A stretch of 64,000 nt of DNA from Escherichia coli (GTDB taxonomy: Bacteria; Pseudomonadota; Gammaproteobacteria; Enterobacterales; Enterobacteriaceae), in NCBI RefSeq assembly GCF_011045215.1, contig NZ_CP049201.1; one strand, written 5' to 3'. How positions within the stretch are numbered: the first letter of the stretch is position 1; the number at the start of each line of letters is the position of its first letter. Positions 44,991-58,655 of the stretch are shown here, in pieces. The translations under genes were made by a program, and so were the position numbers. The notes under the pieces were generated by a model that saw nothing but the letters and a program-made list of their open reading frames with translations, made no database searches and was not told the DNA's origin.

Positions 44991-45276
44991 ACTATTTTCA
45001 GGCCTAACACCACAGCCTGTGCAACATCGTGTTCCAACGAACGAATTATAACCACGGCTGGACCCCGTTGCAATTAAGATAATGAGATTTATAATCCAGA
45101 CCGTTGGGACGTTGCGCCGGATCGAACCTATTTCAAGTCCTGGCTACCGGACGGGTGGTGCTGCAGGTGGTGCCCTGATCCGGAGTGCAACATCGTGGTC
45201 CAACATACGTAAACCAGTATCGACAGGCAGTGTAAGGGTAAGGTGCTGGTGTTGCGCTCCTTAATAAGGAGAGCGG

Positions 45277-45366
45277 ATGGACTCGCTGACACAAAAGTTA
45301 ACCGTGCTCATTGCTGTACTGGAGCTATTAGTAGCTCTGTTACGTTTGATTGATTTGTTGAAGTAA
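45277..45366 (+). CDS. Unannotated 29-codon hydrophobic/amphipathic peptide ORF (candidate small toxin-like membrane peptide)
   Basis: ATG preceded by SD aaggag (5 nt spacing); MDSLTQKLTVLIAVLELLVALLRLIDLLK; putative promoter ttgcaa-N16-tataat at 45068..45095; hairpin aaggggga-N7-tccccctt at 45389..45411. Confidence 0.35.
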   Translation: MDSLTQKLTVLIAVLELLVALLRLIDLLK

Positions 45367-45475
45367 CGGGCAAATTGAAACGCATCTAAGGGGGAAAACC
45401 GCTTCCCCCTTTAATAAAGCTATACTCGTCATACTTCAAGTTGCATGTGCTGCGACTTGAATTATCTAGAGTATA

Positions 45476-45793
45476 TTATTCTATTTCTTGGTTGAATATA
45501 TTCTGTAGTTCACGATTAAAAATTGCTATTACAGTTTCAGGTGATTCACCTCGTAATTTCCGCTCATCAATACACTCATCTCTTATATAAATCAACGCAT
45601 CATTTATTAGCGGGTCAGCATCTTCTCGATCACGTTGATGAAATGTTGGATGTAGCCGGAATCGCTCCAGTCGATAGACGGAACCTGTAAATAATTCAGA
45701 GCATTTATGGATCTCAAGTCTGAAGGAAAACGGATCTTCAGGTACAGGGACCTCATAATCGTAAATAGCAACCAGCTCTTTTTGCACGATCAT
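45476..45793 (-). CDS. yehK: Small acidic protein of unknown function
   Basis: 105 aa ORF 60 bp downstream of yehI on the same strand. Confidence 0.6.
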   Translation of the reverse strand: MIVQKELVAIYDYEVPVPEDPFSFRLEIHKCSELFTGSVYRLERFRLHPTFHQRDREDADPLINDALIYIRDECIDERKLRGESPETVIAIFNRELQNIFNQEIE

Positions 45794-45853
45794 CGCTTTC
45801 CCCGCTGGTAAGTCGTGTTGATAACGGGCAGTTGCATCACTGCCCGCTGTGTT

Positions 45854-48800
45854 TTAATGGAAAATGACGTCAGCTGCGCTTAACGCCTCACTCAAATCAA
45901 ACACATCGAGTTCGGCAAAAGTGACGGATTTATTGTTACGGTAAACCCGAAGAGAATGGAAGCTCATCAGCGCTTTGCTATCAGCACTGTAGTGGTTAAA
46001 ACCGGGTGAAAACTTAAGGACCAGCCGGTACTCACCCAGGTCATAGACAAATGCGTCCTCATAGCCTGACTCCCAGCCTTTGTATCGCATTCCCATAAGT
46101 TGCCCAACGGTAGCGGATTTACCTTCCCAGCGAGTCAGGCTGTTACTGGTTGACTCGTCAGGTGTGAGCAGCACCGTGCGGCGCGACAACTGGCGAAAAG
46201 GCGGCATAATTTCGTAATCGGCAAAAAGCTGTGCAAATTCACTGCGCATTTCTACTGTCATTTCTAACGGGTGGGCAATGCCAATCAGAGCGTCCGCAGG
46301 CAGGTCAATTGGCTCATCTTGCGCATTGCAGAACTCCCCCTCTGCGGCCACACGAAAGGCGTTGAGTAAACAACGCGGTTCATTTGCCGGATAAACCCCC
46401 CATATTAATCGCTGGGTAACCAGACGGGTAAAGGGATGATTAACAAACAGAGAATGAAAATCTGCCAGCGACCAGCGTCGGGTGGTACGTAGGGCCGTTT
46501 CAAGACGCGGGAGCAGGTTTTTGCTCACCTGAGTGGCATCTTTTTTTAGCCCTTTTAGTTGGGCCAGTGCCTCGGGCGCTTTCAGTTGATCGTCATCGGC
46601 GCGCAACCGGGGAACGCTTTTCTGGCGAACGTTTTGCTGATCAAAGATAATCGGGTTGAGGTTTTCATCGAAGCGAACGGTAAACTGCCGGGGACCAAAA
46701 TCAAAAATCAACGCCTGCGGATCATCAAGGCCAAGGGTTGGGACTAATCTGTCCGCTAGCTCTTCCTGGCTTAGCCCGCGATTTTCTGCGACCACCTGAA
46801 GAAATTCCGCCGCGTTATCACGTAAGGGGCGGGATTTAGCCCGTTGCGATATATGATGCAGCTGTATCAGCGCCATATCATTATTCATCAGGGTAAGGAT
46901 GTTCAGGCCGCTGACAGCACGGGCAGATTTGCCTTCTTGTGGCCAGGCGAGGATCTGTGTCGTCAGATCCCGTGCCGTGCTTTCGTCACCAAAGAGACTT
47001 AACGCCAGAAATGCCCAGTTGTCTTTTGCGGGGGCACCAGCTTGTTGCCACGCAGTGAAGAGATCCCAGGCAAAAGCTGCCAGCGTTTGTGGCTGGCAGA
47101 ACGTTTTCAGTTGTTCCAGCCCGCTATAAAAACGTCCCCCCTGGGTAAAGCGCAGCATTTCGCCGAAAATTTCCAGAGCGTCATCGGTAACAGTTTGATT
47201 ATTAGTGATAAGGCGCGGCCTGGACCACATTTGCGGATGCCAGAAATCAGGGGCTTTTGGAATGCGTGCCGGGTAAATCTCTATTGGACTCTGTTTAAGT
47301 AATTGTTCCAGGGCAGGCCATAGATCTGTACGCTGCCAACGATTGGCTAAAGTTTGTAGCAATTCGCCATGCCCATGTTCGTAAAGTAAACGCAGGGCAA
47401 GTAATGCAGCTTCGCTTTTATCGCTGGATTTGGTGAAGACAAGAGGGATAAGTGCAGTAGCCGTATGTTCCGGCCAATGTAAAATCCACTGGCGAGCCAG
47501 ATTACGCTGGCCCGCAAAACGGTGCCAGACGCGGGCAATGGGCAGGGCCAGTTCTGTTGCGCCGAAATTTAAAATTAACGGAAATGTTTCTTTTGGACGA
47601 TGTGAAAAAGCCAACAGCAGACCTGGTAGCGCATCCAATCCGAGGATACTGAGAAAATAGTCCTCACCCGCGAACAGATGCTTTTTCTCATTGATACGCA
47701 GCCAGAAGGTCAAAGCTATCTCACGCGGCAACTGTGCCAATAAATACAGGTTCCAGACACTCTTTTCCGGACGATAACGTGAGTAGTTGTCATTTTCCCA
47801 TATGTTAATTAACGCTTCTACGTGACCACTGCGAAGCGCCTGTTCTGCTAATGGTGCTTCCGGGGAGTTCCAGCCATTCAGGATCTCTTCAACCCGCCCC
47901 TGGTAGTAATGCCACTCAACAATGAGTGAATTGCGTGCAGCATCCAGTTTTCCGGGGAGTATATAATTCAAAAACAGCCATACATCATCCCCAAAACCCA
48001 GTTCCTGTAATACAACTCGCCCACTTTTTTGTTCCATGCGTTCCGCAAGAGATTCCGTGCTGAAATAACGGGCAGGCTCAGTGGCGGCAAGCCTCTCTCG
48101 TTCGCCTGGTTGCCAGTAAACTTGCGGAGTTAATTCGAGCCGTGCCAAATCAAGACGTGGAGCTGTCATTTTTTTCTTACTACGCCACGGTGGTGAAACG
48201 AGGATTTCAGGCAGATTGCTGTTATCGGTGCCATCAATAACCGGTTTTGGCAGTGCCGATAAATAACTCTTCAGCACTGCCCTGGCTTGAGTACTTAACC
48301 ACGGCATCACTTCTGCTGCCAGTTGTGGCTGCGATGCCATCAGCGTTTGTAACAGCGTACGCCAGTATTCATCGCGTGCTTTTTGCTGTGCAGGCAGCTT
48401 TTTGTCTTCGATGATTGGATAACCAGGGCGGGCTGGTGGTTCTGTTAACGCCAGCAGTTCTGCCAGTGCGGCGAGCGTCGCATGGGGGAAGTTTTTATGG
48501 TATTTAGCTACACGTTGCAGGCTGGGTTTGTTTTTATCAGCCACCAGTAGCAAGGTGCGGATGACTTGCGGATGGTTAATTTGTACCAGCAGACTGCCGC
48601 AATCTTCTTTATAGGCATACATCGCGAGGCGCGGAATGGCTGCCAGTCCTTGTTCGCGCAAAAGGGCGGCGCAGGCCGCGTAGCCGAAGTGGTTTTCATG
48701 CGACATGTAGCTGGCTTCTCGATCGCTAAATATATCCTGGCTCCAGTAGTGTTCGAGTTTTCTCACCGCTGTGGGGTCATTAGCTACAACTTTTAACCAC

Positions 48801-49486
48801 TCCTTAGAATGAAAATGAGTTCGCGGGCATTCAAGGCCTACCAACTCATTGGCTATTTCTGGTTTTTCCGGGAGGATCAGCGCAATAAAAGGGCGGCGAA
48901 CTTTGGTTATTCCTGGTAGTGCGGCAATGAGTTTGTCGGCGCAACGCTGCCAGCAGCTTTCCTCTGCCAGAGAGAGGTGTTTACGCAGTCGGAGATCGAA
49001 TTCGTTATAGGTTTCTGAGCGATAACCATAGCCATAGTCCTCGTTCTGATACTGCAATGTGACTACCAGAGGATCACTCTCATAACACCGTGCAATAAAC
49101 TGGCGTGCAATCACCACCTCAGTCGCATATTCCAGCCCCTCTTGTTGGACGATTTCGTCGAGCAACTGTTGGCTGTCATTTTGCGCGATACAGGCTAGCG
49201 CCGCCATTGTCCGGGCCGGGATTGAGGGTTTGTGTTCGCCGATCAAGTTGATGGCCTGCGTGATGGCGGACTGCCACTCCAGTGAAAAATTTTCATAACG
49301 CCAGACAATGTTTTTTTTCTTCTCAGCTTTTTGTAGCAATTCATCACCCAGTGTCTGAATGATGCTTTCAGTGATAACAGGCACTGGTTCGCCCGGCCAA
49401 TTGCGATGGCTGAGTGGTGTTTTACCCTTTTTATATTTCAGTTCCAGTTGGGCGTTATCAGCCAGCCACGGTAATTCCTTGTCCAT
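45854..49486 (-). CDS. yehI: Giant DUF4132-family protein (MolR paralog lacking the N-terminal WGR segment)
   Basis: 1210 aa; C-terminal ~450 aa aligns by eye with the C-termini of the two upstream paralogs. Confidence 0.8.
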   Translation of the reverse strand: MDKELPWLADNAQLELKYKKGKTPLSHRNWPGEPVPVITESIIQTLGDELLQKAEKKKNIVWRYENFSLEWQSAITQAINLIGEHKPSIPARTMAALACIAQNDSQQLLDEIVQQEGLEYATEVVIARQFIARCYESDPLVVTLQYQNEDYGYGYRSETYNEFDLRLRKHLSLAEESCWQRCADKLIAALPGITKVRRPFIALILPEKPEIANELVGLECPRTHFHSKEWLKVVANDPTAVRKLEHYWSQDIFSDREASYMSHENHFGYAACAALLREQGLAAIPRLAMYAYKEDCGSLLVQINHPQVIRTLLLVADKNKPSLQRVAKYHKNFPHATLAALAELLALTEPPARPGYPIIEDKKLPAQQKARDEYWRTLLQTLMASQPQLAAEVMPWLSTQARAVLKSYLSALPKPVIDGTDNSNLPEILVSPPWRSKKKMTAPRLDLARLELTPQVYWQPGERERLAATEPARYFSTESLAERMEQKSGRVVLQELGFGDDVWLFLNYILPGKLDAARNSLIVEWHYYQGRVEEILNGWNSPEAPLAEQALRSGHVEALINIWENDNYSRYRPEKSVWNLYLLAQLPREIALTFWLRINEKKHLFAGEDYFLSILGLDALPGLLLAFSHRPKETFPLILNFGATELALPIARVWHRFAGQRNLARQWILHWPEHTATALIPLVFTKSSDKSEAALLALRLLYEHGHGELLQTLANRWQRTDLWPALEQLLKQSPIEIYPARIPKAPDFWHPQMWSRPRLITNNQTVTDDALEIFGEMLRFTQGGRFYSGLEQLKTFCQPQTLAAFAWDLFTAWQQAGAPAKDNWAFLALSLFGDESTARDLTTQILAWPQEGKSARAVSGLNILTLMNNDMALIQLHHISQRAKSRPLRDNAAEFLQVVAENRGLSQEELADRLVPTLGLDDPQALIFDFGPRQFTVRFDENLNPIIFDQQNVRQKSVPRLRADDDQLKAPEALAQLKGLKKDATQVSKNLLPRLETALRTTRRWSLADFHSLFVNHPFTRLVTQRLIWGVYPANEPRCLLNAFRVAAEGEFCNAQDEPIDLPADALIGIAHPLEMTVEMRSEFAQLFADYEIMPPFRQLSRRTVLLTPDESTSNSLTRWEGKSATVGQLMGMRYKGWESGYEDAFVYDLGEYRLVLKFSPGFNHYSADSKALMSFHSLRVYRNNKSVTFAELDVFDLSEALSAADVIFH

Positions 49487-49495
49487 GCTCTTTCC

Positions 49496-52400
49496 TTATT
49501 CAAACAGGGCTTCAATATCGTTAATTAGCTCGCTGGCGGTGATGGCATCGAGTACGGAGAACAGCGCTTCCTGTGTTGAATTACTCCCCCAGCCATAGCT
49601 TTCCGCTTTGCCTTCCCATAGCCACAGCTTGCTTAAGAGCTGCTCAGCGCTAAGTTCGGCTGGTGACATACCCACTGCAAAGCCTTCATCGATTTCCATG
49701 ATTAACGACCAGCGGCCCAGAGGTTTGATCATCCAGCCGATCCAGCCTCCATCCTGTGGTTCGCCCTTTATCCAGCCTTTATTCGCCAGCCCCATTACCC
49801 GACCGCTCGGGCATTTTCTGCCTGCCCAGCGGGTCAGTTCGCTGGCGTTGCGCTCGGCTTCTGTCAGGGCGTAACTGTTACGGTCAAGCTGGCGGAACGG
49901 TGGTAACAGTTCGTAGTCGGCAAAAAGCTGACCAAAGGCGGCAGCATCCGTCGGTGATATTTCCAGAACGTGAGGAATACCAATAGAGATATCGCCTTCC
50001 GGCAGGGTGAAAAGATCATCGTCAGCGGTGCTGTAGCTGTTATCTTCCGCTACGCGAAAGCAAGCCTGCAGCTGGTTTTCGGCGCTATAAACGCCCCAAA
50101 TCAGACGGCGGGTTAAGTGGCGAACCAGCGGATGCTCAACCAGGAAGAGCTGAAAGTTTTCCGGTGACCAGCGGCGACGCAGGCACATGGCGGATTCCAG
50201 CCTTGCTACCTGCTGGGCGGCGACGGTACGCGCATCTTTTTTCAGCAGTTTGTAGCGGTTAACAGCATCGTTCGCCTGTGATTCATCATCGCTTTTGTTT
50301 GGTTTGGGCAGGTCTTTCAGACGGCTGCCAGAAACATCACGCACAAACGGTTTTAAGGTTTCATCAAAGCTGACGGTGAACTGGCGTGAGCCGAAATCCA
50401 GCAGCAACGAACCGTTATCATCCAGACCGAGATCCGGTGCTAACCGATCTTCAAGCTCTGCCACCGTGAGTTCGCGGCTTTCGGCAATGTCGGCAATTTT
50501 TTCTTTTGCCCGCTCCTGTAATGCTTTGAATTTCAGTTTCTGGGCAATACCGTTAAGCTGCATCAGGGCGATATCACTACCGATAGCGGCGAGAATATCC
50601 AACCCAACGGTGGCGCGTTTATGCTGGGATTCACCAGGCCAGGCGCGTATTAATGGCGTCAGTTTGCGGGCGGTGTCATCGTTACCAAGAACGCCTAACG
50701 CAGTGAACGCCCAACTCTCTTTCGACGGTGCGCCCGCAGTCAGCCAGGCGGTAAACAGATCCCAGGCAAATTCAGCCAGTGAGTCGGCGGTACAGGCATC
50801 TTTCACCTGCAATAATCCCGGATACAGGGCCTCTTCCTGAGGGAAGCGGAGCATTTCACCGAGGTGCTGGAGTGCGCTATCTGGCAGTACCTTGCTGCTA
50901 TTTTTGAGTTTCGGGCGAGTCCATAATGGAGGTTGATAAAACAACGGTAAAGGGGGGATTTTCGCCGGGTATTTACCCACAGGACTGTTGTCGTTATTTT
51001 TATTTTGAGTTTCCCAGGGCGGCGAGACTAGTACCATTGGTAGAATTTCTGAGTTTGCAAAATCTTCATTGCGACTATTCAGCAATTGCTGACATTGTTG
51101 CAATAAATTTACCGCTTGCGACGATAATCCGATGACTAATTTTTCGACCAATAAAGGATTTGCATTAAGTAATGAAACCAGCAACGTATGTTTGCGTTTA
51201 TCATCTTTTTTTACCAATGCTTCGGCTAATGCCGCTATCGTGGCAGAAGGAAAATTTTCGGCACTTTTTATTAGTCGTTCATAACAGCGTTTATTAGTAT
51301 CGGCGGCTTCGATGAGTGCCGTAATGGCCAACGGATGATTAATACATTTCAGTACGTCACCGCAATTATCTTCTTCAGCATAGGGAGCCAGGCGAGCCAG
51401 TGCCGCTATACCTTGCTCCCGTAATACCGTAGCTGACCAACTGGCACCATAGGTGTTAAATACATCAATGTATTGATAGTTCTCCAGTATTTCGAGCGTG
51501 AATGGATCTGTCGCTACCAGTTTCAACATTTCAAGTTGTGGAACATCTGCGACCTGGTGTAAACGATGTACGATCTCATGGGCCACTTCGGGTATTTCTG
51601 GCATTAAAATGGCAATTAACGGTTGGCGATAGAGTGATATATCTGGTAACGCAACGAGTAATTTTGCAATGCAATTTTGCCATACTTCTTCTTCTGCTAG
51701 TGATAAATGTTTACGCAGACGTAAACTAAATTTGTCGTTATTCCTTCTATAACTGTCCTTGCTGCTATCTGCATAATTAATAAAGAAAGTCAAATGTTCA
51801 TCTTTATAGTCAAAATCGAAATCAATTTGCCACCAGAAGATGACAGTTTCAGTTGCGTATTCGATACCGAAGGTGCTTACAATTTCATCCAGCAACTCGG
51901 ATGAGGTTTCATCATTCCAGCCCTGACAAAAACATATTTCCAGAAAAGTAAGTACCGCCATAGTACGCGCGGGTATCTTAGTCTTTTGGGCCTTAATTAA
52001 GCTGATTGCCTGGCTAATCGCATCAGCCCATTCATCAGAGCATGAGCTGTAATCGAAAGTCAGATTTTTATAATAATGATAAGTACGATTTGCCAATCGG
52101 GAAATTAAATTTTGTTTCTCGGGTTTGGTTGGTTTTTTTACTGGCTCTCCCGGCCAAAGGCGGTGGCTGAGGGCATGGCGGGCAATATTCGGGGGAAGAA
52201 TAATGGGATCGTTGTCTGCCAGCCAGGGTAAACCATTAGTTGCTGCCTGGCGATTTATTGAGGCTTTTTCCTCTGTGACCAGGACTTTCTTTGCTGAGGC
52301 ATCATGTGAGTGAGCGTTAGCGTCTACTTGCTCCACATACCCCTTCTTCACCTTCTCCGCAATCAGCTTCAGTGCTGCTTTTTCCGCCGCCGCAGTATCT

Positions 52401-52528
52401 GCAAAGCTTTTTACCTGACTTTGCCCGTTGGTACCGACTTTACCCCAGTTAATATGCAGCTCGTTTCCCTGCTGCTCCACCGCCCAGAATTTATGTGATT
52501 TTTCGTCCTGATAAATATAGGTTTTCAT
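49496..52528 (-). CDS. WGR-domain / DUF4132 protein, middle MolR-family paralog
   Basis: 1010 aa; N-terminal 65 aa nearly identical to the upstream paralog; C-terminal half ~70% identical to it; central part AT-rich and divergent. Confidence 0.75.
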   Translation of the reverse strand: MKTYIYQDEKSHKFWAVEQQGNELHINWGKVGTNGQSQVKSFADTAAAEKAALKLIAEKVKKGYVEQVDANAHSHDASAKKVLVTEEKASINRQAATNGLPWLADNDPIILPPNIARHALSHRLWPGEPVKKPTKPEKQNLISRLANRTYHYYKNLTFDYSSCSDEWADAISQAISLIKAQKTKIPARTMAVLTFLEICFCQGWNDETSSELLDEIVSTFGIEYATETVIFWWQIDFDFDYKDEHLTFFINYADSSKDSYRRNNDKFSLRLRKHLSLAEEEVWQNCIAKLLVALPDISLYRQPLIAILMPEIPEVAHEIVHRLHQVADVPQLEMLKLVATDPFTLEILENYQYIDVFNTYGASWSATVLREQGIAALARLAPYAEEDNCGDVLKCINHPLAITALIEAADTNKRCYERLIKSAENFPSATIAALAEALVKKDDKRKHTLLVSLLNANPLLVEKLVIGLSSQAVNLLQQCQQLLNSRNEDFANSEILPMVLVSPPWETQNKNNDNSPVGKYPAKIPPLPLFYQPPLWTRPKLKNSSKVLPDSALQHLGEMLRFPQEEALYPGLLQVKDACTADSLAEFAWDLFTAWLTAGAPSKESWAFTALGVLGNDDTARKLTPLIRAWPGESQHKRATVGLDILAAIGSDIALMQLNGIAQKLKFKALQERAKEKIADIAESRELTVAELEDRLAPDLGLDDNGSLLLDFGSRQFTVSFDETLKPFVRDVSGSRLKDLPKPNKSDDESQANDAVNRYKLLKKDARTVAAQQVARLESAMCLRRRWSPENFQLFLVEHPLVRHLTRRLIWGVYSAENQLQACFRVAEDNSYSTADDDLFTLPEGDISIGIPHVLEISPTDAAAFGQLFADYELLPPFRQLDRNSYALTEAERNASELTRWAGRKCPSGRVMGLANKGWIKGEPQDGGWIGWMIKPLGRWSLIMEIDEGFAVGMSPAELSAEQLLSKLWLWEGKAESYGWGSNSTQEALFSVLDAITASELINDIEALFE

Positions 52529-52540
52529 TGTTAAATCCTT

Positions 52541-55500
52541 TTAATCAAACAGTGATTCAATGTCGTTAATCAGCTCGCTGGCGGTGATGTCGTCGAGCAT
52601 GGAGAAAGTGGGTGAGGATTGTTTACCATAGCGATCATAAGGGGCGGTGATTTTTACGCTTTCGACAGGCAGCAGGTCGCTATACCCCGTTTCGCCATAA
52701 ATTAATGAAAAAGGTTCCGTTTCAAGTTCGAGAGCACCATAAGGGGTAGATTTGCGCATCGCATAGACGCTGCCGCTTTCTTCCAGACGTTGCCAGCCTC
52801 GGCGTTCCAGCCCGACAATGCGTCCGGCCTGGCAGAGACGTCCGTTCCAGCGTGACAATTCATGGACATTACGTTCGTTATCAGCAAGGTGGTAACTACC
52901 ACGTTCGAACTGTTGGAAAGGGGGAAGCAGTTCGTAATCAACGTAAATTTGCCTGAATGCAGCGGCGGATTCAGGGGGGATTTCCAGCACATGCGGTATA
53001 CCGATGTTTCCTGCTGGCAGCGTGAATAACTCATCCTGCGCATCGCTGTAAGTGCTGTCTTCTGCCACGCGAAAACAGGTGATAAGAGCGTTTTCATCGT
53101 TATAACCCCCCCATAACAGCCGTCGGGTTAAGTGACGTACCAGCGGATGCTCCACCAGAAACAGGCGGAACTGCTCTGCCGTCCAGCGTCTGCGCTGGCA
53201 CATAGCCTGTTCCAGACGGGTAATTTGCTGGCTGGCGATAGCACGAACATCTTTTTTCAACTGTTTGAAGAGATTAACTGCGTCAGTTGCCAGTGTTTTA
53301 TCATCGCTCTGGTTTGGCTTAGGTAAATCTTTCAGGACTTTGCCGTTTGCATCGCACACTACAGGTTTTAAGGTTTCGTCAAAACCAACGGTGAATTTGC
53401 GGGGGCCGAAATCCAGTGTCAGCGAGCCACTGCTATCAAGCCCTAAATCTGGAGCCAGGCGGTCTTCCAGTTCAGCCATAGTCAGCCCACGGTTTTCAGC
53501 AACTATGTTGATTTTCTCGCGGGCATGTTCCTGTAATGCTTTGAATTTAATTTTTCGCGCGATGCCATTAAGCAGCATTAGCGCAACATCGCTGCCAATA
53601 TCAGCTAATACATCCAGCCCGGACACCGCCCGTTTATGCTGGGATTCCCCAGGCCAGGCGCGGATAAGCGGGGTTAATTTACGCGCGGTGTCGTCATTGC
53701 CTAAAATCCCAAGCGAAGTAAATGCCCAGTTTTCTTTTGCGGGTGCGCCAGCTTCTGTCCAGGCGGTATACAGATCCCAGCCAAATTCAGCCAGTGATTC
53801 GCGGGTGAAGATTTCTCTAATGATATCCAGCCCAGCGTAGGCGGTAATGTCGCGAGGAAAGCTCAGCATAGTGCCGAGGTGGCGCATAGCGTCATCTGAC
53901 AGAGGCAGGTTGTTACTTTTAAGCCGTGGTCTGCGCCACAAGGTGAACTGATAAAAGCCGGACAGTGGGGCGATTTTAGCGGGATATTCTTCCAGTGGGT
54001 CGCTATCGAACAATGTTGCCAGCGCAGCTAAAACATCAGGTTGGTTGTATCCCTGGGCGATTTCCTCAATCGTTTCTCGCTGGTTTAAATTCACCAGCAG
54101 ACGAAGCGCCTGGCGGGCACAATCACGATCTTTTCCCTGTTTGCCCAGGGCCACAGGAAGTAGCCCGGCGGCGGCATGGCGTGGGTAGTCAGTTAGCCAG
54201 TTTCGCGCATCTTCATAAGACATTTTTTTCTGTAGCTGTTGCGCCATCGGTAAGGCCAGTTCACTGACACCGAGGAAGAAGGTGAAGAAGCACAGGCGTC
54301 GTGGATTACGTTGCAGACAGGTCATAAATGCAGGTATGGCGGCGCTACCAAAAATTGCCAGAATATTTTCCTCACCAGAGTAGTTATCTTCTTTGACTAT
54401 CTGGTTAAGAAAAGAAATGGCCTGTTGACCAGGCAGGTAACAGAGGGCCATGAGATCCCAGCTTTTGTATGCATTGTTATGGTATTGCGCAAATTCAGCA
54501 TTGAGTGCTGGAAAATCGAAGCGTAGCAGGGCATCAACGGCGCTTTGTGGGGCCGGAATTTTTTCGTATATTTTCTCTCCGCTTTCCCGCCATTTTTCAA
54601 AACCAAGATGCCACAGTATTTGTTGCTCCGGTGTAAGCGGTATTAATTGTTTCTCCCAGCTTGCTTTTTTCATCGGCGGCAGGTCGGTAAACAATGTTTG
54701 TTTTGTCGCCTGCTGTTGGGCTATTTGCTGGAAGCGGGTGACAAGGTAAGTACGGGTTAGTCTTTTGGCAATCTCGGGAGTGACATCAGAAACAGAAGGA
54801 ACTGGAAGCACAGGAAGATCAAACACAGGCGTATTTTTCTTTTTCTCTTTGGTCATCCAGGGCGGCGAAACAAGCAGTTGTGGCAACATATCCGCAGTGG
54901 CGTATTCACACACTTCAGTCACAGGTTGCAGGCGACATTCAGATAAGATGCCAGCGGCTTTGGCATTCACCCAGGGAATGACGTCGCATACTAACTCTGG
55001 CGTGGCGGTAATCAGTTTGACAAGCGCTTTACGCCACTCTTTATCTTCATGTATTGCCAGCAAAGTAGCATAAGCCGCAATAGCCGCAGCGGGATGCTTT
55101 TGACTGGCCTTGCTTAAGTATTCCAGGTGCTTTTTCTTACCAATTACACCGAGGATCAGAATTTGAATCGCATCCGGGTGATTAGTTTTCCATAGCCATT
55201 TGACAAGATTTTCAGTCTCGCTGATGCGTTCGAAGAGATAAGTGGGATTGTCAGAATGGTCTTCCGTAAACTCAAGAAGTATCCGGCTTACACCGCGCAC
55301 CCCATTATTTGCCAACAACATTGCCAGATAAGCGCGAAAATTACGAAAATCACGATACAACGGTGGGAAGTCGTATTTTTCCACTGTACTCAGAGCAGTA
55401 TCATCGGTTATCACCAGTCTTAACCAGGCCATCGCCGGGACGTTTTGGTCTGCATAGCGTAGAGCTATAGCATGGGCGATATCCGGGCGTTCAGGGAGCA

Positions 55501-56350
55501 GTAACGCCGCAAAAGGTTGCCGTGCGGGGGATAGCGTCGGAATGGCGGTGAGTACTTTATCTACACAGCGTTGCCACTCATCTTCTGAAGCGAGTGAAAG
55601 ATGATGACATAGACGTTGATGCCAACTAGGTAGCGATTCTGCTTCGTGATTAGGTGGAATGATGGTGGTTACTGCGCCTTTTACTGGTTTATATTTGAGT
55701 TGAAGGGCAAAAAGGGCGATTTCAACGGCGCTTTCCAGACCACAGCGAATGACTAAGTCATCGACCAGTTCATCTGCAGAGTAAGAGTTCCAAAAACTCC
55801 AGAGCAATGCTGCATCAGATTGCGCACTCCCTGTCTGTTGATTATCCAGAATTCGCCTTTGTAACTCAGCAAAAGCCTGCTGCCAGTTTTCAGGATAAGA
55901 GCGGTAATTGTTGTCGGGATCATATGCCCTGGTGTTATCTGCAATACGCTTCCATATCTCACCGTCTTTGCGCAGATAATTGATCTCTCTGGGGCGAGAG
56001 CGATGAGGAAAAGCAAATCGGTTAATATCGTCAGTTACCGGAATAACTGCATCATCAGCCAGCCACGGGCGTTGGTTTTTACTCTCAGGGGAAGATTCAA
56101 CTTCAGGAGTGGCTTTGGTGATGGGGGAGATATGCACGTTTGCTGAAGCATTTTCCACATAGCCTTTTTTCGTTTTCTCTGCGATCAGCTTAAGCTCCGC
56201 TTTTGCCGCTGCCGCAGCATCTGCAAAACTTTTTATCTGGCTTTGCCCTTTGGTGCCAACTTTTCCCCAACTGATATGCAACTCGTTTCCCTGTTGCTCC
56301 ACCGCCCAGAATTTATGTGATTTTTCGTCCTGATAGATAAAGTGTCTCAT
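52541..56350 (-). CDS. molR: WGR-domain / DUF4132 protein, intact MolR-like
   Basis: 1269 aa uninterrupted ORF starting MRHFIYQDEKSHKFWAVEQQGNELHISWGKVGT... (WGR-like); lies between metG and yehI, where K-12 carries a molR pseudogene as I recall. Confidence 0.75.
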   Translation of the reverse strand: MRHFIYQDEKSHKFWAVEQQGNELHISWGKVGTKGQSQIKSFADAAAAAKAELKLIAEKTKKGYVENASANVHISPITKATPEVESSPESKNQRPWLADDAVIPVTDDINRFAFPHRSRPREINYLRKDGEIWKRIADNTRAYDPDNNYRSYPENWQQAFAELQRRILDNQQTGSAQSDAALLWSFWNSYSADELVDDLVIRCGLESAVEIALFALQLKYKPVKGAVTTIIPPNHEAESLPSWHQRLCHHLSLASEDEWQRCVDKVLTAIPTLSPARQPFAALLLPERPDIAHAIALRYADQNVPAMAWLRLVITDDTALSTVEKYDFPPLYRDFRNFRAYLAMLLANNGVRGVSRILLEFTEDHSDNPTYLFERISETENLVKWLWKTNHPDAIQILILGVIGKKKHLEYLSKASQKHPAAAIAAYATLLAIHEDKEWRKALVKLITATPELVCDVIPWVNAKAAGILSECRLQPVTEVCEYATADMLPQLLVSPPWMTKEKKKNTPVFDLPVLPVPSVSDVTPEIAKRLTRTYLVTRFQQIAQQQATKQTLFTDLPPMKKASWEKQLIPLTPEQQILWHLGFEKWRESGEKIYEKIPAPQSAVDALLRFDFPALNAEFAQYHNNAYKSWDLMALCYLPGQQAISFLNQIVKEDNYSGEENILAIFGSAAIPAFMTCLQRNPRRLCFFTFFLGVSELALPMAQQLQKKMSYEDARNWLTDYPRHAAAGLLPVALGKQGKDRDCARQALRLLVNLNQRETIEEIAQGYNQPDVLAALATLFDSDPLEEYPAKIAPLSGFYQFTLWRRPRLKSNNLPLSDDAMRHLGTMLSFPRDITAYAGLDIIREIFTRESLAEFGWDLYTAWTEAGAPAKENWAFTSLGILGNDDTARKLTPLIRAWPGESQHKRAVSGLDVLADIGSDVALMLLNGIARKIKFKALQEHAREKINIVAENRGLTMAELEDRLAPDLGLDSSGSLTLDFGPRKFTVGFDETLKPVVCDANGKVLKDLPKPNQSDDKTLATDAVNLFKQLKKDVRAIASQQITRLEQAMCQRRRWTAEQFRLFLVEHPLVRHLTRRLLWGGYNDENALITCFRVAEDSTYSDAQDELFTLPAGNIGIPHVLEIPPESAAAFRQIYVDYELLPPFQQFERGSYHLADNERNVHELSRWNGRLCQAGRIVGLERRGWQRLEESGSVYAMRKSTPYGALELETEPFSLIYGETGYSDLLPVESVKITAPYDRYGKQSSPTFSMLDDITASELINDIESLFD

Positions 56351-56490
56351 TCTGCATCCCTGTAATTTTATCCAGTTAAATGCAGATGCTACCAGTATTT
56401 ATGCGGGTTAGAGAGAGACAAAATCGCAAGAAAACAACTTTAGGAATTTATAAAGAAAAGGCGCTGTCGATGCAGCGCCTTGAAGGGGGA

Positions 56491-58524
56491 TTATTTCACC
56501 TGATGACCCGGTTTAGCACCAGCATCCGGGCTTAGCAGGAAAATATCTTTCCCGCCAGGACCGGCAGCCATCACCATGCCTTCAGAGATACCGAAGCGCA
56601 TTTTACGTGGTGCCAGGTTAGCCACCATAATGGTGTGACGACCAATCAGTGCCTGCGGATCCGGGTAAGCAGAACGAATGCCGGAGAAGACATTACGCTT
56701 TTCGCCGCCGAGATCCAGCGTCAGGCGTAGCAGTTTGTCAGAACCTTCAACAAACTCTGCGTTTTCAATCAGCGCCACGCGCAGGTCAACTTTGGCGAAG
56801 TCGTCAAAGGTGATGGTTTCCTGAATCGGATCATCTGCCAGTGGGCCAGTAACTGGCGCGGCAGCTGCTTTCACTTCTTCTTTAGACGCTTCCACCAGTG
56901 CTTCAACCTGCTTCATATCGATGCGGTTATATAGCGCCTTGAACGGATTCACTTTGTGGCCCAGCAGCGGTTGCTGGATACCATCCCAGGTCAGTTCCGT
57001 ATTGAGGAATGCTTCTGCACGCTCGGTCAGTTTCGGCAGTACCGGCTTCAGGTAAGTCATCAGCACGCGGAACAGGTTTATGCCCATCGAGCAAATTGCC
57101 TGCAGGTCAGCATCGCGGCCTTCCTGTTTCGCTACCACCCACGGAGCCTGTTCATCGACATAGCGGTTAGCCAGATCAGCCAGCGCCATAATTTCGCGCA
57201 CTGCTTTACCAAATTCGCGGCTTTCCCACGCTTCACCAATCACTTCAGCGGCATCAGTGAAGGTTTTGTACAACTGCGGGTCAGCCAGTTCGCTTGCCAG
57301 CACACCGTCAAAACGCTTGTTGATAAAGCCCGCATTACGAGAGGCCAGGTTAACCACTTTATTAACGATATCGGCATTCACGCGCTGAACGAAATCTTCC
57401 AGGTTGAGATCGATATCATCAATGCGCGAAGAGAGTTTCGCAGTGTAGTAGTAACGCAGGCTGTCGGCGTCAAAATGATTCAGCCAGGTGCTGGCTTTAA
57501 TAAAGGTACCGCGAGACTTGGACATTTTCGCGCCGTTCACCGTCACATAGCCGTGAACAAACAGGTTGGTCGGCTTGCGGAAGTTGCTACCTTCCAGCAT
57601 TGCTGGCCAGAACAGGCTGTGGAAGTAAACGATATCTTTACCGATGAAGTGGTACAGCTCGGCGGTGGAGTCTTTCTTCCAGTATTCATCGAAGCTTACG
57701 CTATCGCCGCGCTTGTCGCACAGATTCTTGAAAGAACCCATATAGCCAATCGGTGCGTCCAACCAGACGTAGAAATATTTGCCCGGCGCGTTCGGAATTT
57801 CAAAACCGAAATAAGGGGCATCGCGGGAGATATCCCACTGTTGCAGGCCAGATTCAAACCACTCCTGCATTTTATTTGCCACCTGCTCCTGCAACGCACC
57901 GCTGCGGGTCCATGCCTGCAGCATTTCGCTGAAAGAGGGCAGATCAAAGAAGAAGTGTTCAGAATCACGCATTACCGGGGTGGCGCCAGAAACCACCGAT
58001 TTCGGCTCGATCAGTTCAGTCGGGCTGTAGGTCGCACCGCAGACTTCGCAGTTATCGCCGTATTGATCCGGGGATTTACATTTCGGGCAGGTGCCTTTCA
58101 CAAAACGGTCCGGCAGGAACATGCCTTTTTCCGGATCGTACAGCTGAGAGATGGTGCGGTTTTTAATAAAACCGTTTTCTTTCAGGCGAGAGTAGATAAG
58201 TTCTGACAACTGGCGGTTCTCTTCGCTGTGCGTCGAGTGATAGTTGTCATAGCTGATGTTAAAGCCTGCGAAATCAGTCTGATGCTCCTGACTCATTTCG
58301 CCAATCATCTGCTCCGGGGTGATACCAAGCTGCTGAGCTTTCAGCATGATCGGTGTACCGTGGGCATCGTCGGCGCAGATGAAGTTGACCTCGTGGCCGC
58401 GCATTCGCTGGTAACGGACCCAGACATCAGCCTGGATGTGCTCCAGCATATGGCCGAGGTGGATTGAGCCGTTAGCGTACGGCAGTGCGCACGTCACCAG
58501 AATTTTCTTCGCGACTTGAGTCAT
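56491..58524 (-). CDS. metG: Methionyl-tRNA synthetase
   Basis: Class I HIGH motif ([11 protein letters not shown]), KMSKS motif, zinc knuckle CPKCK...CEVCG, C-terminal tRNA-binding domain; 677 aa from internal start MTQVAKK.... Confidence 0.9.
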
Positions 58525-58655
58525 AGTAGGCATTACTTCTTAATAGTGAAAAGGGGTTAGATAGTACCAAATGGGAAAATGTTAAGTAAGTACTTCTCTA
58601 TATTCTTCAGGTAAACTATCAGCTGATGGTTTATCTATACAAAAAAGGAGTCGGG

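Follow-up and report, generated by a model that had tools for sequence, protein, structure and literature searches.

Three tandem paralogs beside metG and the repeat they share

The window is a stretch of 64,000 nucleotides from an Escherichia coli contig (NZ_CP049201.1). It includes three tandem paralogs, which we refer to as the first paralog (the one adjoining metG), the middle paralog, and yehI.

52541..56350, minus strand: first paralog CDS, 1269 aa, WGR + DUF4132, intact in the window; its body is missing from two-gene strains
49496..52528, minus strand: middle paralog CDS, 1010 aa, WGR + DUF4132, a short allele ("class A")
45854..49486, minus strand: yehI, the third paralog, 1210 aa, starting at the equivalent of residue ~95 and lying outside the repeat

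The Pfam WGR domain (PF05406) is found at residues 6-69 of the first paralog (model positions 9-77 of 79, E 1.6e-18) and at residues 7-69 of the middle paralog (model 7-77 of 79, E 1.4e-18), and a match to PDB 2ra8 over residues 2-89 (E 1.8e-19) agrees with that assignment. The C-terminal DUF4132 (PF13569) has E-values of 4.4e-49 and 8.6e-52, respectively. The locus is that of K-12 MolR/YehI, metG-molR-yehI-yehK-yehL, and each of the two window proteins combines an N-terminal WGR with a C-terminal DUF4132; unlike K-12, the window has one extra paralog. The synteny with metG and yehK/yehL is confirmed by the RefSeq annotation of a 99.9% identical strain, PapM-32-1. PADLOC defence models searched against the paralogs and yehK/yehL give only a marginal WGR_XIII match to the middle paralog (E 0.0047), NCBIfam gives only partial matches below cutoff that reflect the WGR domain, and an Rfam scan of window positions 45000-57000 finds no RNA family. 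In the N-terminal body, the first and middle proteins are 30-47% identical, which indicates that their duplication long predates E. coli.

The first and middle paralogs share a direct repeat at their 5' coding ends, and a second, shorter one at their 3' ends.

56154..56350, minus strand: repeat copy A, the first paralog's WGR domain (codons 1-66)
52332..52528, minus strand: repeat copy B, the middle paralog's WGR domain (codons 1-66)
56295..56335, minus strand: 41-nt block of exact identity in copy A, CDS nt 16-56
52473..52513, minus strand: the same 41-nt block in copy B
52541..52606, minus strand: final 66 nt of the first paralog, matching the final 66 nt of the middle one (49496-49561) at 86% identity

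A repeat search of the window pairs 52332-52529 with 56154-56351 (198 nt, 84% identity, 3822 nt from start to start). An earlier note on this DNA had described these 5' ends as almost identical; the repeat is where that note placed it, but near-identity does not hold, as 32 of 197 bases and 11 of 66 residues differ. The nucleotide alignment of 52330..52528 with 56150..56350 that the same note had called for gives 83.8%, above the 80% it took as its lower limit. This figure (165/197) comes from aligning the two minus-strand CDS starts without gaps; in that alignment the first 60 nt are 90% identical and the longest exact run is the 41 nt at CDS nt 16-56. The similarity of copies A and B is far beyond chance, since their pairwise blastn E-value is 1.4e-57. 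It stops sharply at nt ~197-202; for ~1.5 kb past the repeat there is no blastn match between the two genes, and protein identity is 36%. We rejected yehI as a third copy of the repeat: unlike the other paralogs it has no WGR domain or segment. Both copies are on the minus strand, and their exact block of 41 nt exceeds the minimal efficient processing segment of E. coli, about 23-27 bp. The block is long enough for RecA-type homologous exchange; in other three-gene strains, the exact run between the copies is 32-53 nt.

Past nt ~198, E. coli has at least four allele classes of the middle paralog, whose DNA identity to one another is only 43-55% there and returns to 85-99% in the C-terminal half. 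The window's middle paralog matches the 3' part of K-12 molR at 96% identity over its own 3' 1475 nt. Classes A-C are each found in another Escherichia species representative, and no partner for class D was found among those representatives. Mosaics also occur, such as L010, in which blocks are swapped between allele classes.

Two-gene strains carry a first/middle chimera that switches inside the repeat

We examined about 20 loci base by base. Every single gene among them that stands in place of the first and middle paralogs (n = 9, one truncated by IS1) has the 5' end of the first paralog and the body of the middle one. The switch point falls inside the 197-nt repeat in all nine, within nt 15-167, such that the upstream region and the first ~15-160 nt are first-type and everything downstream is middle-type. 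In K-12, the single gene is first-type at all diagnostic sites from -39 to nt 159, and middle-type at all of them from nt 168.

56184..56191, minus strand: where the K-12-type crossover interval, CDS nt 160-167, falls in copy A (K-12 molR stays first-type through nt 159)
52362..52369, minus strand: copy B equivalent of the same interval (K-12 molR is middle-type from nt 168)

K-12 molR thus joins ~160 nt of 5' coding sequence of the window's first-paralog type to a middle-paralog body of another allele class. Its body is 92-93.5% identical over the full length to the middle paralog of the three-gene strain KGu016, and the K-12 locus can be aligned along its whole length with KGu016 once the period of the first paralog is taken out. 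The name molR had been given earlier to the window's gene adjoining metG, which is right as to position; most of K-12 molR is instead orthologous to the middle paralog.

A breakpoint scan of the individual genes places the junction at nt 159-167 in K-12, L006, L007 and L008, at nt 135-152 in L010, at nt 141-158 in L009, and at nt 141-145 in L017. Two fusions with a class-D body have junction intervals that do not overlap, nt 146-155 in L011 and nt 15-56 in L055, a swine lineage, the latter spanning the 41-nt block. For eight single genes scanned, the chimera model leaves 3-7 mismatches in seven, versus 15-30 under an all-first or an all-middle model; for L008, which is divergent at nt 62-105, it leaves 18. 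The exact 81-mer spanning the K-12 junction occurs in 1947 genomes. The fusions are in frame, and unbroken in the majority of strains examined; the single genes of L006 and L008-L011 (3750-3795 nt) are intact ORFs. K-12 molR has a stop at codon 275 and an extra nucleotide near nt 2846, and its pseudogenisation is due to these later, secondary lesions away from the junction. The earlier suggestion of pseudogenised fusions is therefore correct as to fusion, but it is not the fusion that inactivates the gene.

For copy number, we assigned 5426 complete E. coli genomes to BLAST coverage classes; sampling in this collection is biased. The first-paralog body is present in 1643, so about 30% of sequenced E. 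coli, O157:H7 and ST131 among them, keep both parent genes. A contiguous junction of metG-upstream region, WGR segment and class-C middle body is found in 3663 of the 5426. The class-D body occurs in 156 genomes, in 75 of these as a fusion (75/5426); it is the middle paralog in three-gene strains L053 and L054, and part of a fusion in L011 and L055. The class-A fusion expected from the window's own haplotype, searched with a synthetic query of class-A body, WGR segment and metG-upstream region, is found in 0 of 5426 genomes. The class-A middle paralog is consequently always in a three-gene context, and deletion must be infrequent. Some rare deletions at the locus are IS-mediated and map outside the repeat; they do not explain the main copy-number polymorphism. 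In about two thirds of E. coli strains, one gene has been lost via recombination inside the repeat.

Outside E. coli, the order first, middle, yehI is found in Escherichia sp. E1V33, E. whittamii, MOD1-EC7003, K. oxytoca and K. spallanzanii. In E. albertii, the gene adjoining metG is first-type, on a contig that is cut short; Erwinia and Intestinirhabdus each carry just one WGR-DUF4132 gene at the locus, and K. grimontii has two genes. In the WGR segment of K. grimontii, sites at nt 69-111 are first-type and sites at nt 132-154 are middle-type, which is suggestive of a chimera; with references taken from other species, a chimera model does only slightly better than an all-middle one (68 versus 72 mismatches). 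Because other Escherichia species and two Klebsiella species carry three genes, the three-gene arrangement is the ancestral one. The proposal that repeat-mediated deletion lies behind the differences in copy number fits both the chimeras switching inside the repeat and this ancestral state; the junctions in other strains fall where it predicted, in nine of nine single genes examined, and only the rare IS-mediated deletions map elsewhere.

Concerted evolution of the WGR segment

In WGR codons 1-66, the first and middle paralogs have dN 0.079 and pS 0.54, and in the rest of the gene dN 0.17-0.98 and pS 0.58-0.85, mostly at or near saturation. Across Escherichia, the two copies have 21 polymorphisms in common versus one fixed difference, and within E. 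coli alone seven shared polymorphisms and six fixed differences, all counted in a small sample of eight first-paralog and six middle-paralog alleles. Within a genus, the WGR nucleotide identity between paralogs is 83-88% (E. coli) and 80% (K. oxytoca, where it reaches 91% in nt 61-130), and across genera the WGR identity is 72-78%, with orthologues at 74-77%. For the gene bodies the order is reversed, with 58/68% for orthologues and 44-46/62-66% for paralogs within a genome. The WGR segment thus groups by genus and the gene bodies group by orthologue. In E. albertii, the first paralog's WGR segment is middle-type in its 3' part. These population and cross-genus patterns show that copies A and B evolve in concert, most probably by gene conversion, the other process that had been proposed for this repeat. 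Parallel codon-usage shifts in Klebsiella could inflate the within-genus similarity, but the residues shared within a genus (G21D, I26L, S41T) argue against such shifts as the whole cause.

Duplicated genes that evolve in concert by gene conversion are known from tufA/tufB in Salmonella and E. coli. Like them, the WGR copies have polymorphisms in common, and paralogs within a genome are closer than orthologues across genera. Unlike in tufA/tufB, conversion would be limited to a small domain module of only ~84-88% identity, and the rest of the genes diverges freely. We looked for a recent conversion tract in the window strain and rejected it: all other E. coli pairs examined are more alike than that of the window (85-88% versus 83.8%), and synonymous sites in the repeat remain strongly diverged (pS 0.54). 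The 41-nt block as a recent conversion in this strain was rejected as well, the block being conserved in all strains and genera.

An alternative to conversion is that selection acts directly on the nucleotides of the 41-nt block, for instance because they form an unstructured A-rich translation-initiation region or some other embedded signal. In 21 sequences from four genera (Escherichia, Klebsiella, Erwinia, Intestinirhabdus), the third positions of codons 6-15 (nt 16-45) are 0.71-1.0 conserved, and 0.86-1.0 apart from codon 8, compared with about 0.3-0.8 for most later codons. The K. oxytoca first paralog is 100% identical to that of E. coli in nt 16-56, and identity across genera is beyond the reach of conversion within a genome. 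Set against this, the region has no Rfam family match and we found no specific element in it; the sample of sequences is small, and horizontal exchange may be an alternative source of the conservation. We consider nucleotide selection on the block a tentative proposal that is probably wrong, and one compatible with deletion and conversion through the repeat.

Origin of the fusion gene and its consequences

We assign a probability of roughly 85% to the reading in which purifying selection, patchy conversion and unequal recombination act together on the WGR repeat of two ancient tandem paralogs and give rise to the first/middle fusion. The first and middle paralogs are an ancient tandem pair, each made of WGR, a variable region, and DUF4132. 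Strong purifying selection on the WGR domain holds most of the nucleotide similarity, and patchy gene conversion in short tracts would keep copies A and B evolving in concert. The direct repeats, which share a reading frame and are separated by one gene length (3.8 kb), would have served as the crossover site of unequal homologous recombination. Such an exchange would remove exactly one repeat period, comprising the body of the first paralog and the start of the middle one, and would leave an in-frame first/middle fusion under the promoter of the first paralog. This "Lepore-type" fusion haplotype is now the majority state in E. coli and bears the name molR in K-12, where unrelated mutations later inactivated it. 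The comparisons above establish that the gene is chimeric, where its junctions lie and in which direction the change went; the exchange is presumably RecA-dependent. Counting against this reading, homologous recombination in E. coli at 84% identity should be rare and opposed by mismatch repair. Also, the commonest junction (nt 159-167) sits in an identity block of only 8 nt in present-day alleles, outside the 41-nt block, so the original crossover may have occurred elsewhere and then been blurred, or the exchange may have been RecA-independent, as in replication slippage.

We give almost no credence to the similarity being a mere by-product of purifying selection on the domain, with unrelated deletions and no recombination role for the repeat. 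The WGR dN/dS of ~0.08, differences at more than half of the synonymous sites (pS 0.54), an amino-acid identity (83%) equal to the nucleotide identity, and the IS-mediated deletions elsewhere in the locus would all fit, but all single genes are chimeras that switch inside the repeat with an in-frame loss of exactly one period, and both the 21 shared polymorphisms versus one fixed difference and the grouping of WGR by genus and bodies by orthologue speak against it. Also very improbable is an ancestral two-gene arrangement, from which the three-gene state would arise by insertion or horizontal gain of the first paralog's body. Two genes are the majority state in E. coli, K. grimontii has two as well, and Erwinia and Intestinirhabdus have a single one. 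Yet the same order of first, middle and yehI recurs in three other Escherichia representatives and two Klebsiella species, bodies with 30-47% protein identity place the duplication far before E. coli, and any inserted body would need to enter the WGR segment without breaking the frame and would require a three-gene donor anyway.

A variant of the preferred reading, rather than an exclusive competitor, has just one or two founding deletions, with the spread of junctions due to later strain-to-strain crossover inside the WGR segment. A single class-C founder is suggested by the nucleotides just past the junction (nt 201-700), where class-C single genes are 98-100% identical to one another and match the class-C middle paralog in the three-gene strain L005 at only 81%. 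In the mosaic L010, the flanks and 3' end are 99% identical to those of the three-gene strain L004, and few founders would also agree with the number of genomes carrying the exact K-12 junction and with the lack of class-A fusions. On the other side, the class-D body exists both as a middle paralog and as a fusion, the two class-D fusions have non-overlapping junctions, and the loss of the first paralog in K. grimontii is independent of E. coli. We regard few founders as nearly an even bet.

In humans, Lepore-type fusions of delta- and beta-globin result from unequal crossing-over between tandem paralogs. The E. coli locus resembles them in having tandem paralogs in the same orientation, a crossover in homologous coding sequence with the loss of exactly one period, and an in-frame chimera that joins the promoter and 5' end of the upstream gene to the body of the downstream gene. 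Each fusion has a single switch inside the homology, and the unfused tandem arrangement is the ancestor. It differs in being bacterial, in having its homology confined to a domain-coding module of 197 nt at 84% identity, and in that the WGR-DUF4132 fusion is now the majority allele in E. coli. The 5426-genome search, which finds one chromosomal copy of the first-paralog body per genome, turned up no reciprocal "anti-Lepore" duplication.

A broader possibility, which we find unlikely, is that the WGR repeat is the conserved left homology arm of a cassette-exchange locus, and that the WGR-variable-DUF4132 paralogs form a diversifying conflict-type sensor system with the adjacent genes yehL (AAA ATPase), yehM, yehP (vWA) and yehQ (SWIM). 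Recombination through the conserved WGR and C-terminal arms would then shuffle the specificity regions, with the loss of a gene copy as its side effect.

Recombination of this kind is already well known, and the locus is a well-supported new example, solid but unsurprising. Our literature search found no paper on the copy-number polymorphism or on the chimeric origin of molR; its coverage was incomplete, which makes it weak evidence of absence. The K-12 "molR" is not the orthologue of the gene adjoining metG in three-gene strains. It is a fusion of two ancestral genes, in which the promoter and first ~160 nt of the first are joined to the body of the second paralog, and orthologue tables, pan-genome clustering, and functional work on MolR/YehI must account for it. 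The locus is a clean natural case of a conserved domain module acting as the recombination site between otherwise diverged tandem genes, with deletion products and the apparent footprints of gene conversion visible in one population.

The repeated WGR segment

The two intervals paired by the earlier note are the ~66 opening codons of adjacent paralogs, here named first (the gene adjoining metG, which that note called molR) and middle; yehI follows them. The window is E. coli; strain PapM-32-1 matches it with 99.9% identity over an 11.2-kb query. Pfam places a WGR domain in both proteins (residues 6-69 of first, E 1.6e-18; residues 7-69 of middle, E 1.4e-18) and a DUF4132 domain at both C-termini. 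yehI is without the WGR segment; its start corresponds to residue ~95 of these proteins.

Features of the locus, in window positions. The exact block is from the ungapped comparison.
56491-58533, minus strand: metG
52541-56350, minus strand: first gene, 1269 aa
56295-56335, minus strand: 41-nt exact block, copy in first
49496-52528, minus strand: middle gene, 1010 aa
52473-52513, minus strand: 41-nt exact block, copy in middle
45854-49486, minus strand: yehI
45476-45793, minus strand: yehK

The repeat is real and sharply bounded, but contrary to the earlier note the starts are not near-identical. In an ungapped comparison they are 83.8% identical over 197 nt and 90% identical in the first 60 nt, with a longest exact run of 41 nt (nt 16-56, in CDS numbering as throughout). 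An independent repeat search reports 52332-52529 and 56154-56351 (198 nt, 84% identical, spacing 3822), and pairwise blastn of the two copies gives E = 1.4e-57. Similarity ends at nt ~197-202; blastn finds no match between first and middle in the remaining N-terminal half, where protein identity is 36%, and the C-terminal halves are ~70% identical. A second direct repeat (86% identity) is formed by the last 66 nt of first (52541-52606) and middle (49496-49561), coding for the common tail ...ITASELINDIE.LF. The window's middle paralog (49496-52528; also L018, a locus extracted from another genome, 13814-16846) is an intact ORF ~250 residues shorter than the full-length middle paralogs of other strains (1250-1264 aa); Escherichia sp. 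E1V33 also has the short form, and O157:H7-type strains have it as a pseudogene.

Between first and middle, dN is 0.079 and pS 0.54 in the repeat, compared with dN 0.17-0.98 and pS 0.58-0.85 in the rest of the gene, so that purifying selection on the domain is the source of most of the nucleotide similarity. Synonymous divergence in the repeat is also lower than in most of the remaining gene. The suggestion that the repeats may mediate gene conversion is supported by shared polymorphism and by within-genus likeness. Across Escherichia, the 197 nt include 21 sites polymorphic for one and the same pair of bases in both paralogs and 1 fixed difference (7 and 6, respectively, within E. coli only). 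Within E. coli the WGR segments of the two paralogs are 83-88% identical in nucleotides, and within K. oxytoca 80% (91% in nt 61-130), more than cross-genus orthologues at 77% (first-first) and 74% (middle-middle). In the gene bodies orthologues are the more similar: the N-terminal body is 58% identical between orthologues and 44-46% between paralogs of one genome, and the C-terminal part 68% and 62-66%, respectively. Both paralogs have G21/I26/S41 in Escherichia and D21/L26/T41 in Klebsiella, and in E. albertii the WGR segment of first is middle-type in its 3’ part. This is the pattern that concerted evolution through patchy conversion would be expected to leave, here confined to one domain module. 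No recent conversion tract was found in the window strain; among the E. coli pairs compared, its own has the lowest similarity.

Conversion within a genome cannot account for the synonymous conservation at codons 6-15. When 21 sequences of the genera Escherichia, Klebsiella, Erwinia and Intestinirhabdus are compared, third positions there are 0.71-1.0 conserved (0.86-1.0 without codon 8), compared with ~0.3-0.8 in most later codons, and nt 16-56 of the K. oxytoca first gene are identical to those of E. coli. Conservation across genera suggests a nucleotide-level constraint at the ORF start of first and middle, possibly related to translation initiation. The block region has no match to an Rfam family.

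Single genes as first/middle chimeras

Many strains carry one gene, such as K-12 molR, in place of first and middle. Aligned to the 3-gene strain KGu016, the K-12-type locus matches yehK, yehI and the entire middle gene at 93.5% identity and, in a separate alignment, the 5’ 197 nt of first and the metG side at 96.7%. K-12 molR is first-type at all diagnostic sites from -39 to nt 159, and middle-type at all from nt 168. We scanned eight single genes for breakpoints using 8 first and 6 middle alleles as references. A chimera leaves 3-7 mismatches in seven of them and 18 in L008; the non-chimera model leaves 15-30.

Switch intervals from first-type to middle-type in the breakpoint scan. L numbers are loci extracted from other genomes.
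nt 159-167: K-12, L006, L007, L008
nt 141-158: L009
nt 135-152: L010 (strain A21)
nt 146-155: L011
nt 141-145: L017

In L055, a fusion from a swine ETEC whose body is of middle-gene allele class D, the switch falls in nt 15-56, spanning the 41-nt exact block. Its exact junction sequence is present in 20 genomes, and the exact K-12 junction 81-mer in 1947. All single genes examined have a middle-type body and none a first-type one; base-by-base examination covers ~20 loci.

The proposal that the repeats mediate the deletion behind strain differences in copy number is supported by these junctions. The same proposal for pseudogenised fusions stands in part: fusions do switch inside the repeat, but they are intact and in frame in L006 and L008-L011, and the lesions of K-12 molR (W15R, a codon-275 stop and one additional base near nt 2846) are secondary. 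Homologous exchange at 84% identity is expected to be rare, being opposed by mismatch repair. At the commonest junction (nt 159-167) the identity block in present-day alleles is just 8 nt, so either the original crossover has since been blurred or the mechanism is not RecA-dependent.

Copy number, direction and number of deletions

Copy number was counted in 5426 complete E. coli genomes, a collection that does not sample the species at random. The 3-gene locus of the window is at least 80% covered in 935, and the first gene's body is present in 1643, including O157:H7 and, as inferred from its two match places with the class-D junction query, ST131. The contiguous K-12-type junction (metG upstream, WGR and middle-type body) is present in 3663, and its equivalent with a class-D body in 75. 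In 3-gene genomes the match to the K-12 junction query stops at the end of the WGR segment. Other rearrangements are IS-associated or irregular: an IS26-flanked CTX-M-15 module in place of first together with the 5’ end of middle (L016 11165-18590), a single gene truncated by IS1 with yehI and yehK removed (L017 2398-4202), and a deletion that leaves a remnant of yehI joined to truncated yehM (L012 1-3679). In the O157:H7-type 3-gene strains L003 (4395-11201) and L013 (4692-11499), the first paralog has a stop at codon 243 and the middle one is in two pieces, an ORF with the WGR segment alone and a C-terminal fragment, so the locus decays in several lineages independently of fusion.

The order first, middle, yehI occurs in Escherichia sp. 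E1V33, E. whittamii, Escherichia sp. MOD1-EC7003, Klebsiella oxytoca and K. spallanzanii; in E. albertii a first-type gene adjoins metG and the contig is cut. Since several outgroups have three genes, and the N-terminal bodies of first and middle (30-47% protein identity) are too diverged for a recent duplication, deletion must have produced the 2-gene state. In K. grimontii one middle-type WGR-DUF4132 gene lies between metG and yehI (L023 10001-17331), where K. oxytoca (L024 10001-21096) and K. spallanzanii have two such genes. This loss of first is independent of that in E. coli; scored with references from other species, a chimera fits its gene hardly better than an all-middle model (68 against 72 mismatches). 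Intestinirhabdus alba has one gene, with a WGR start joined to a yehI-type body (L026 4053-7898), and Erwinia (L025, L027) one middle-type gene immediately upstream of yehL, so that the paralogs at this locus vary from 1 to 3 across Enterobacterales. The WGR segment seems to have been lost from yehI in some lineages.

Just beyond the junction, all class-C fusions share 98-100% identity with one another and only 81% with the class-C middle gene that a 3-gene E. coli strain carries, which suggests one founder followed by recombinational spread. The class-D body is found in 156 genomes, in 75 of them as a fusion adjoining metG. Among the loci examined, it is a middle gene in 3-gene L053 and L054 and a fused gene in L011 and L055, whose junctions do not overlap. 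The fusion predicted for the window's class-A haplotype is in none of the 5426 complete genomes. We read these data as few founding deletions, of which E. coli had two or more, and then strain-to-strain exchanges that also cross inside the WGR segment.

Allele classes and significance

Just past the repeat (window 50500-52330, nt ~200-2000), the middle gene has at least four allele classes with 43-55% DNA identity within E. coli (compared in L004 4468-8229, L005 4323-8117, L011 4323-8072 and L053 4424-8173), and identity rises again to 85-99% in the C-terminal half. Classes A, B and C have partners in E1V33, MOD1-EC7003 and E. whittamii, respectively. Classes occur in mosaic combinations; strain A21 is a mosaic of three sources. 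The classes suggest long-lived, exchanged specificity cassettes, and hint at a diversifying locus with the WGR segment as homology arm.

The mechanism is already known and ordinary: classical unequal crossover between tandem paralogs, giving a Lepore-type fusion, together with concerted evolution of a single domain module. No account of it for molR/yehI turned up in the literature searchable here. The finding is useful for annotating the K-12 gene molR and for assigning its orthologues.
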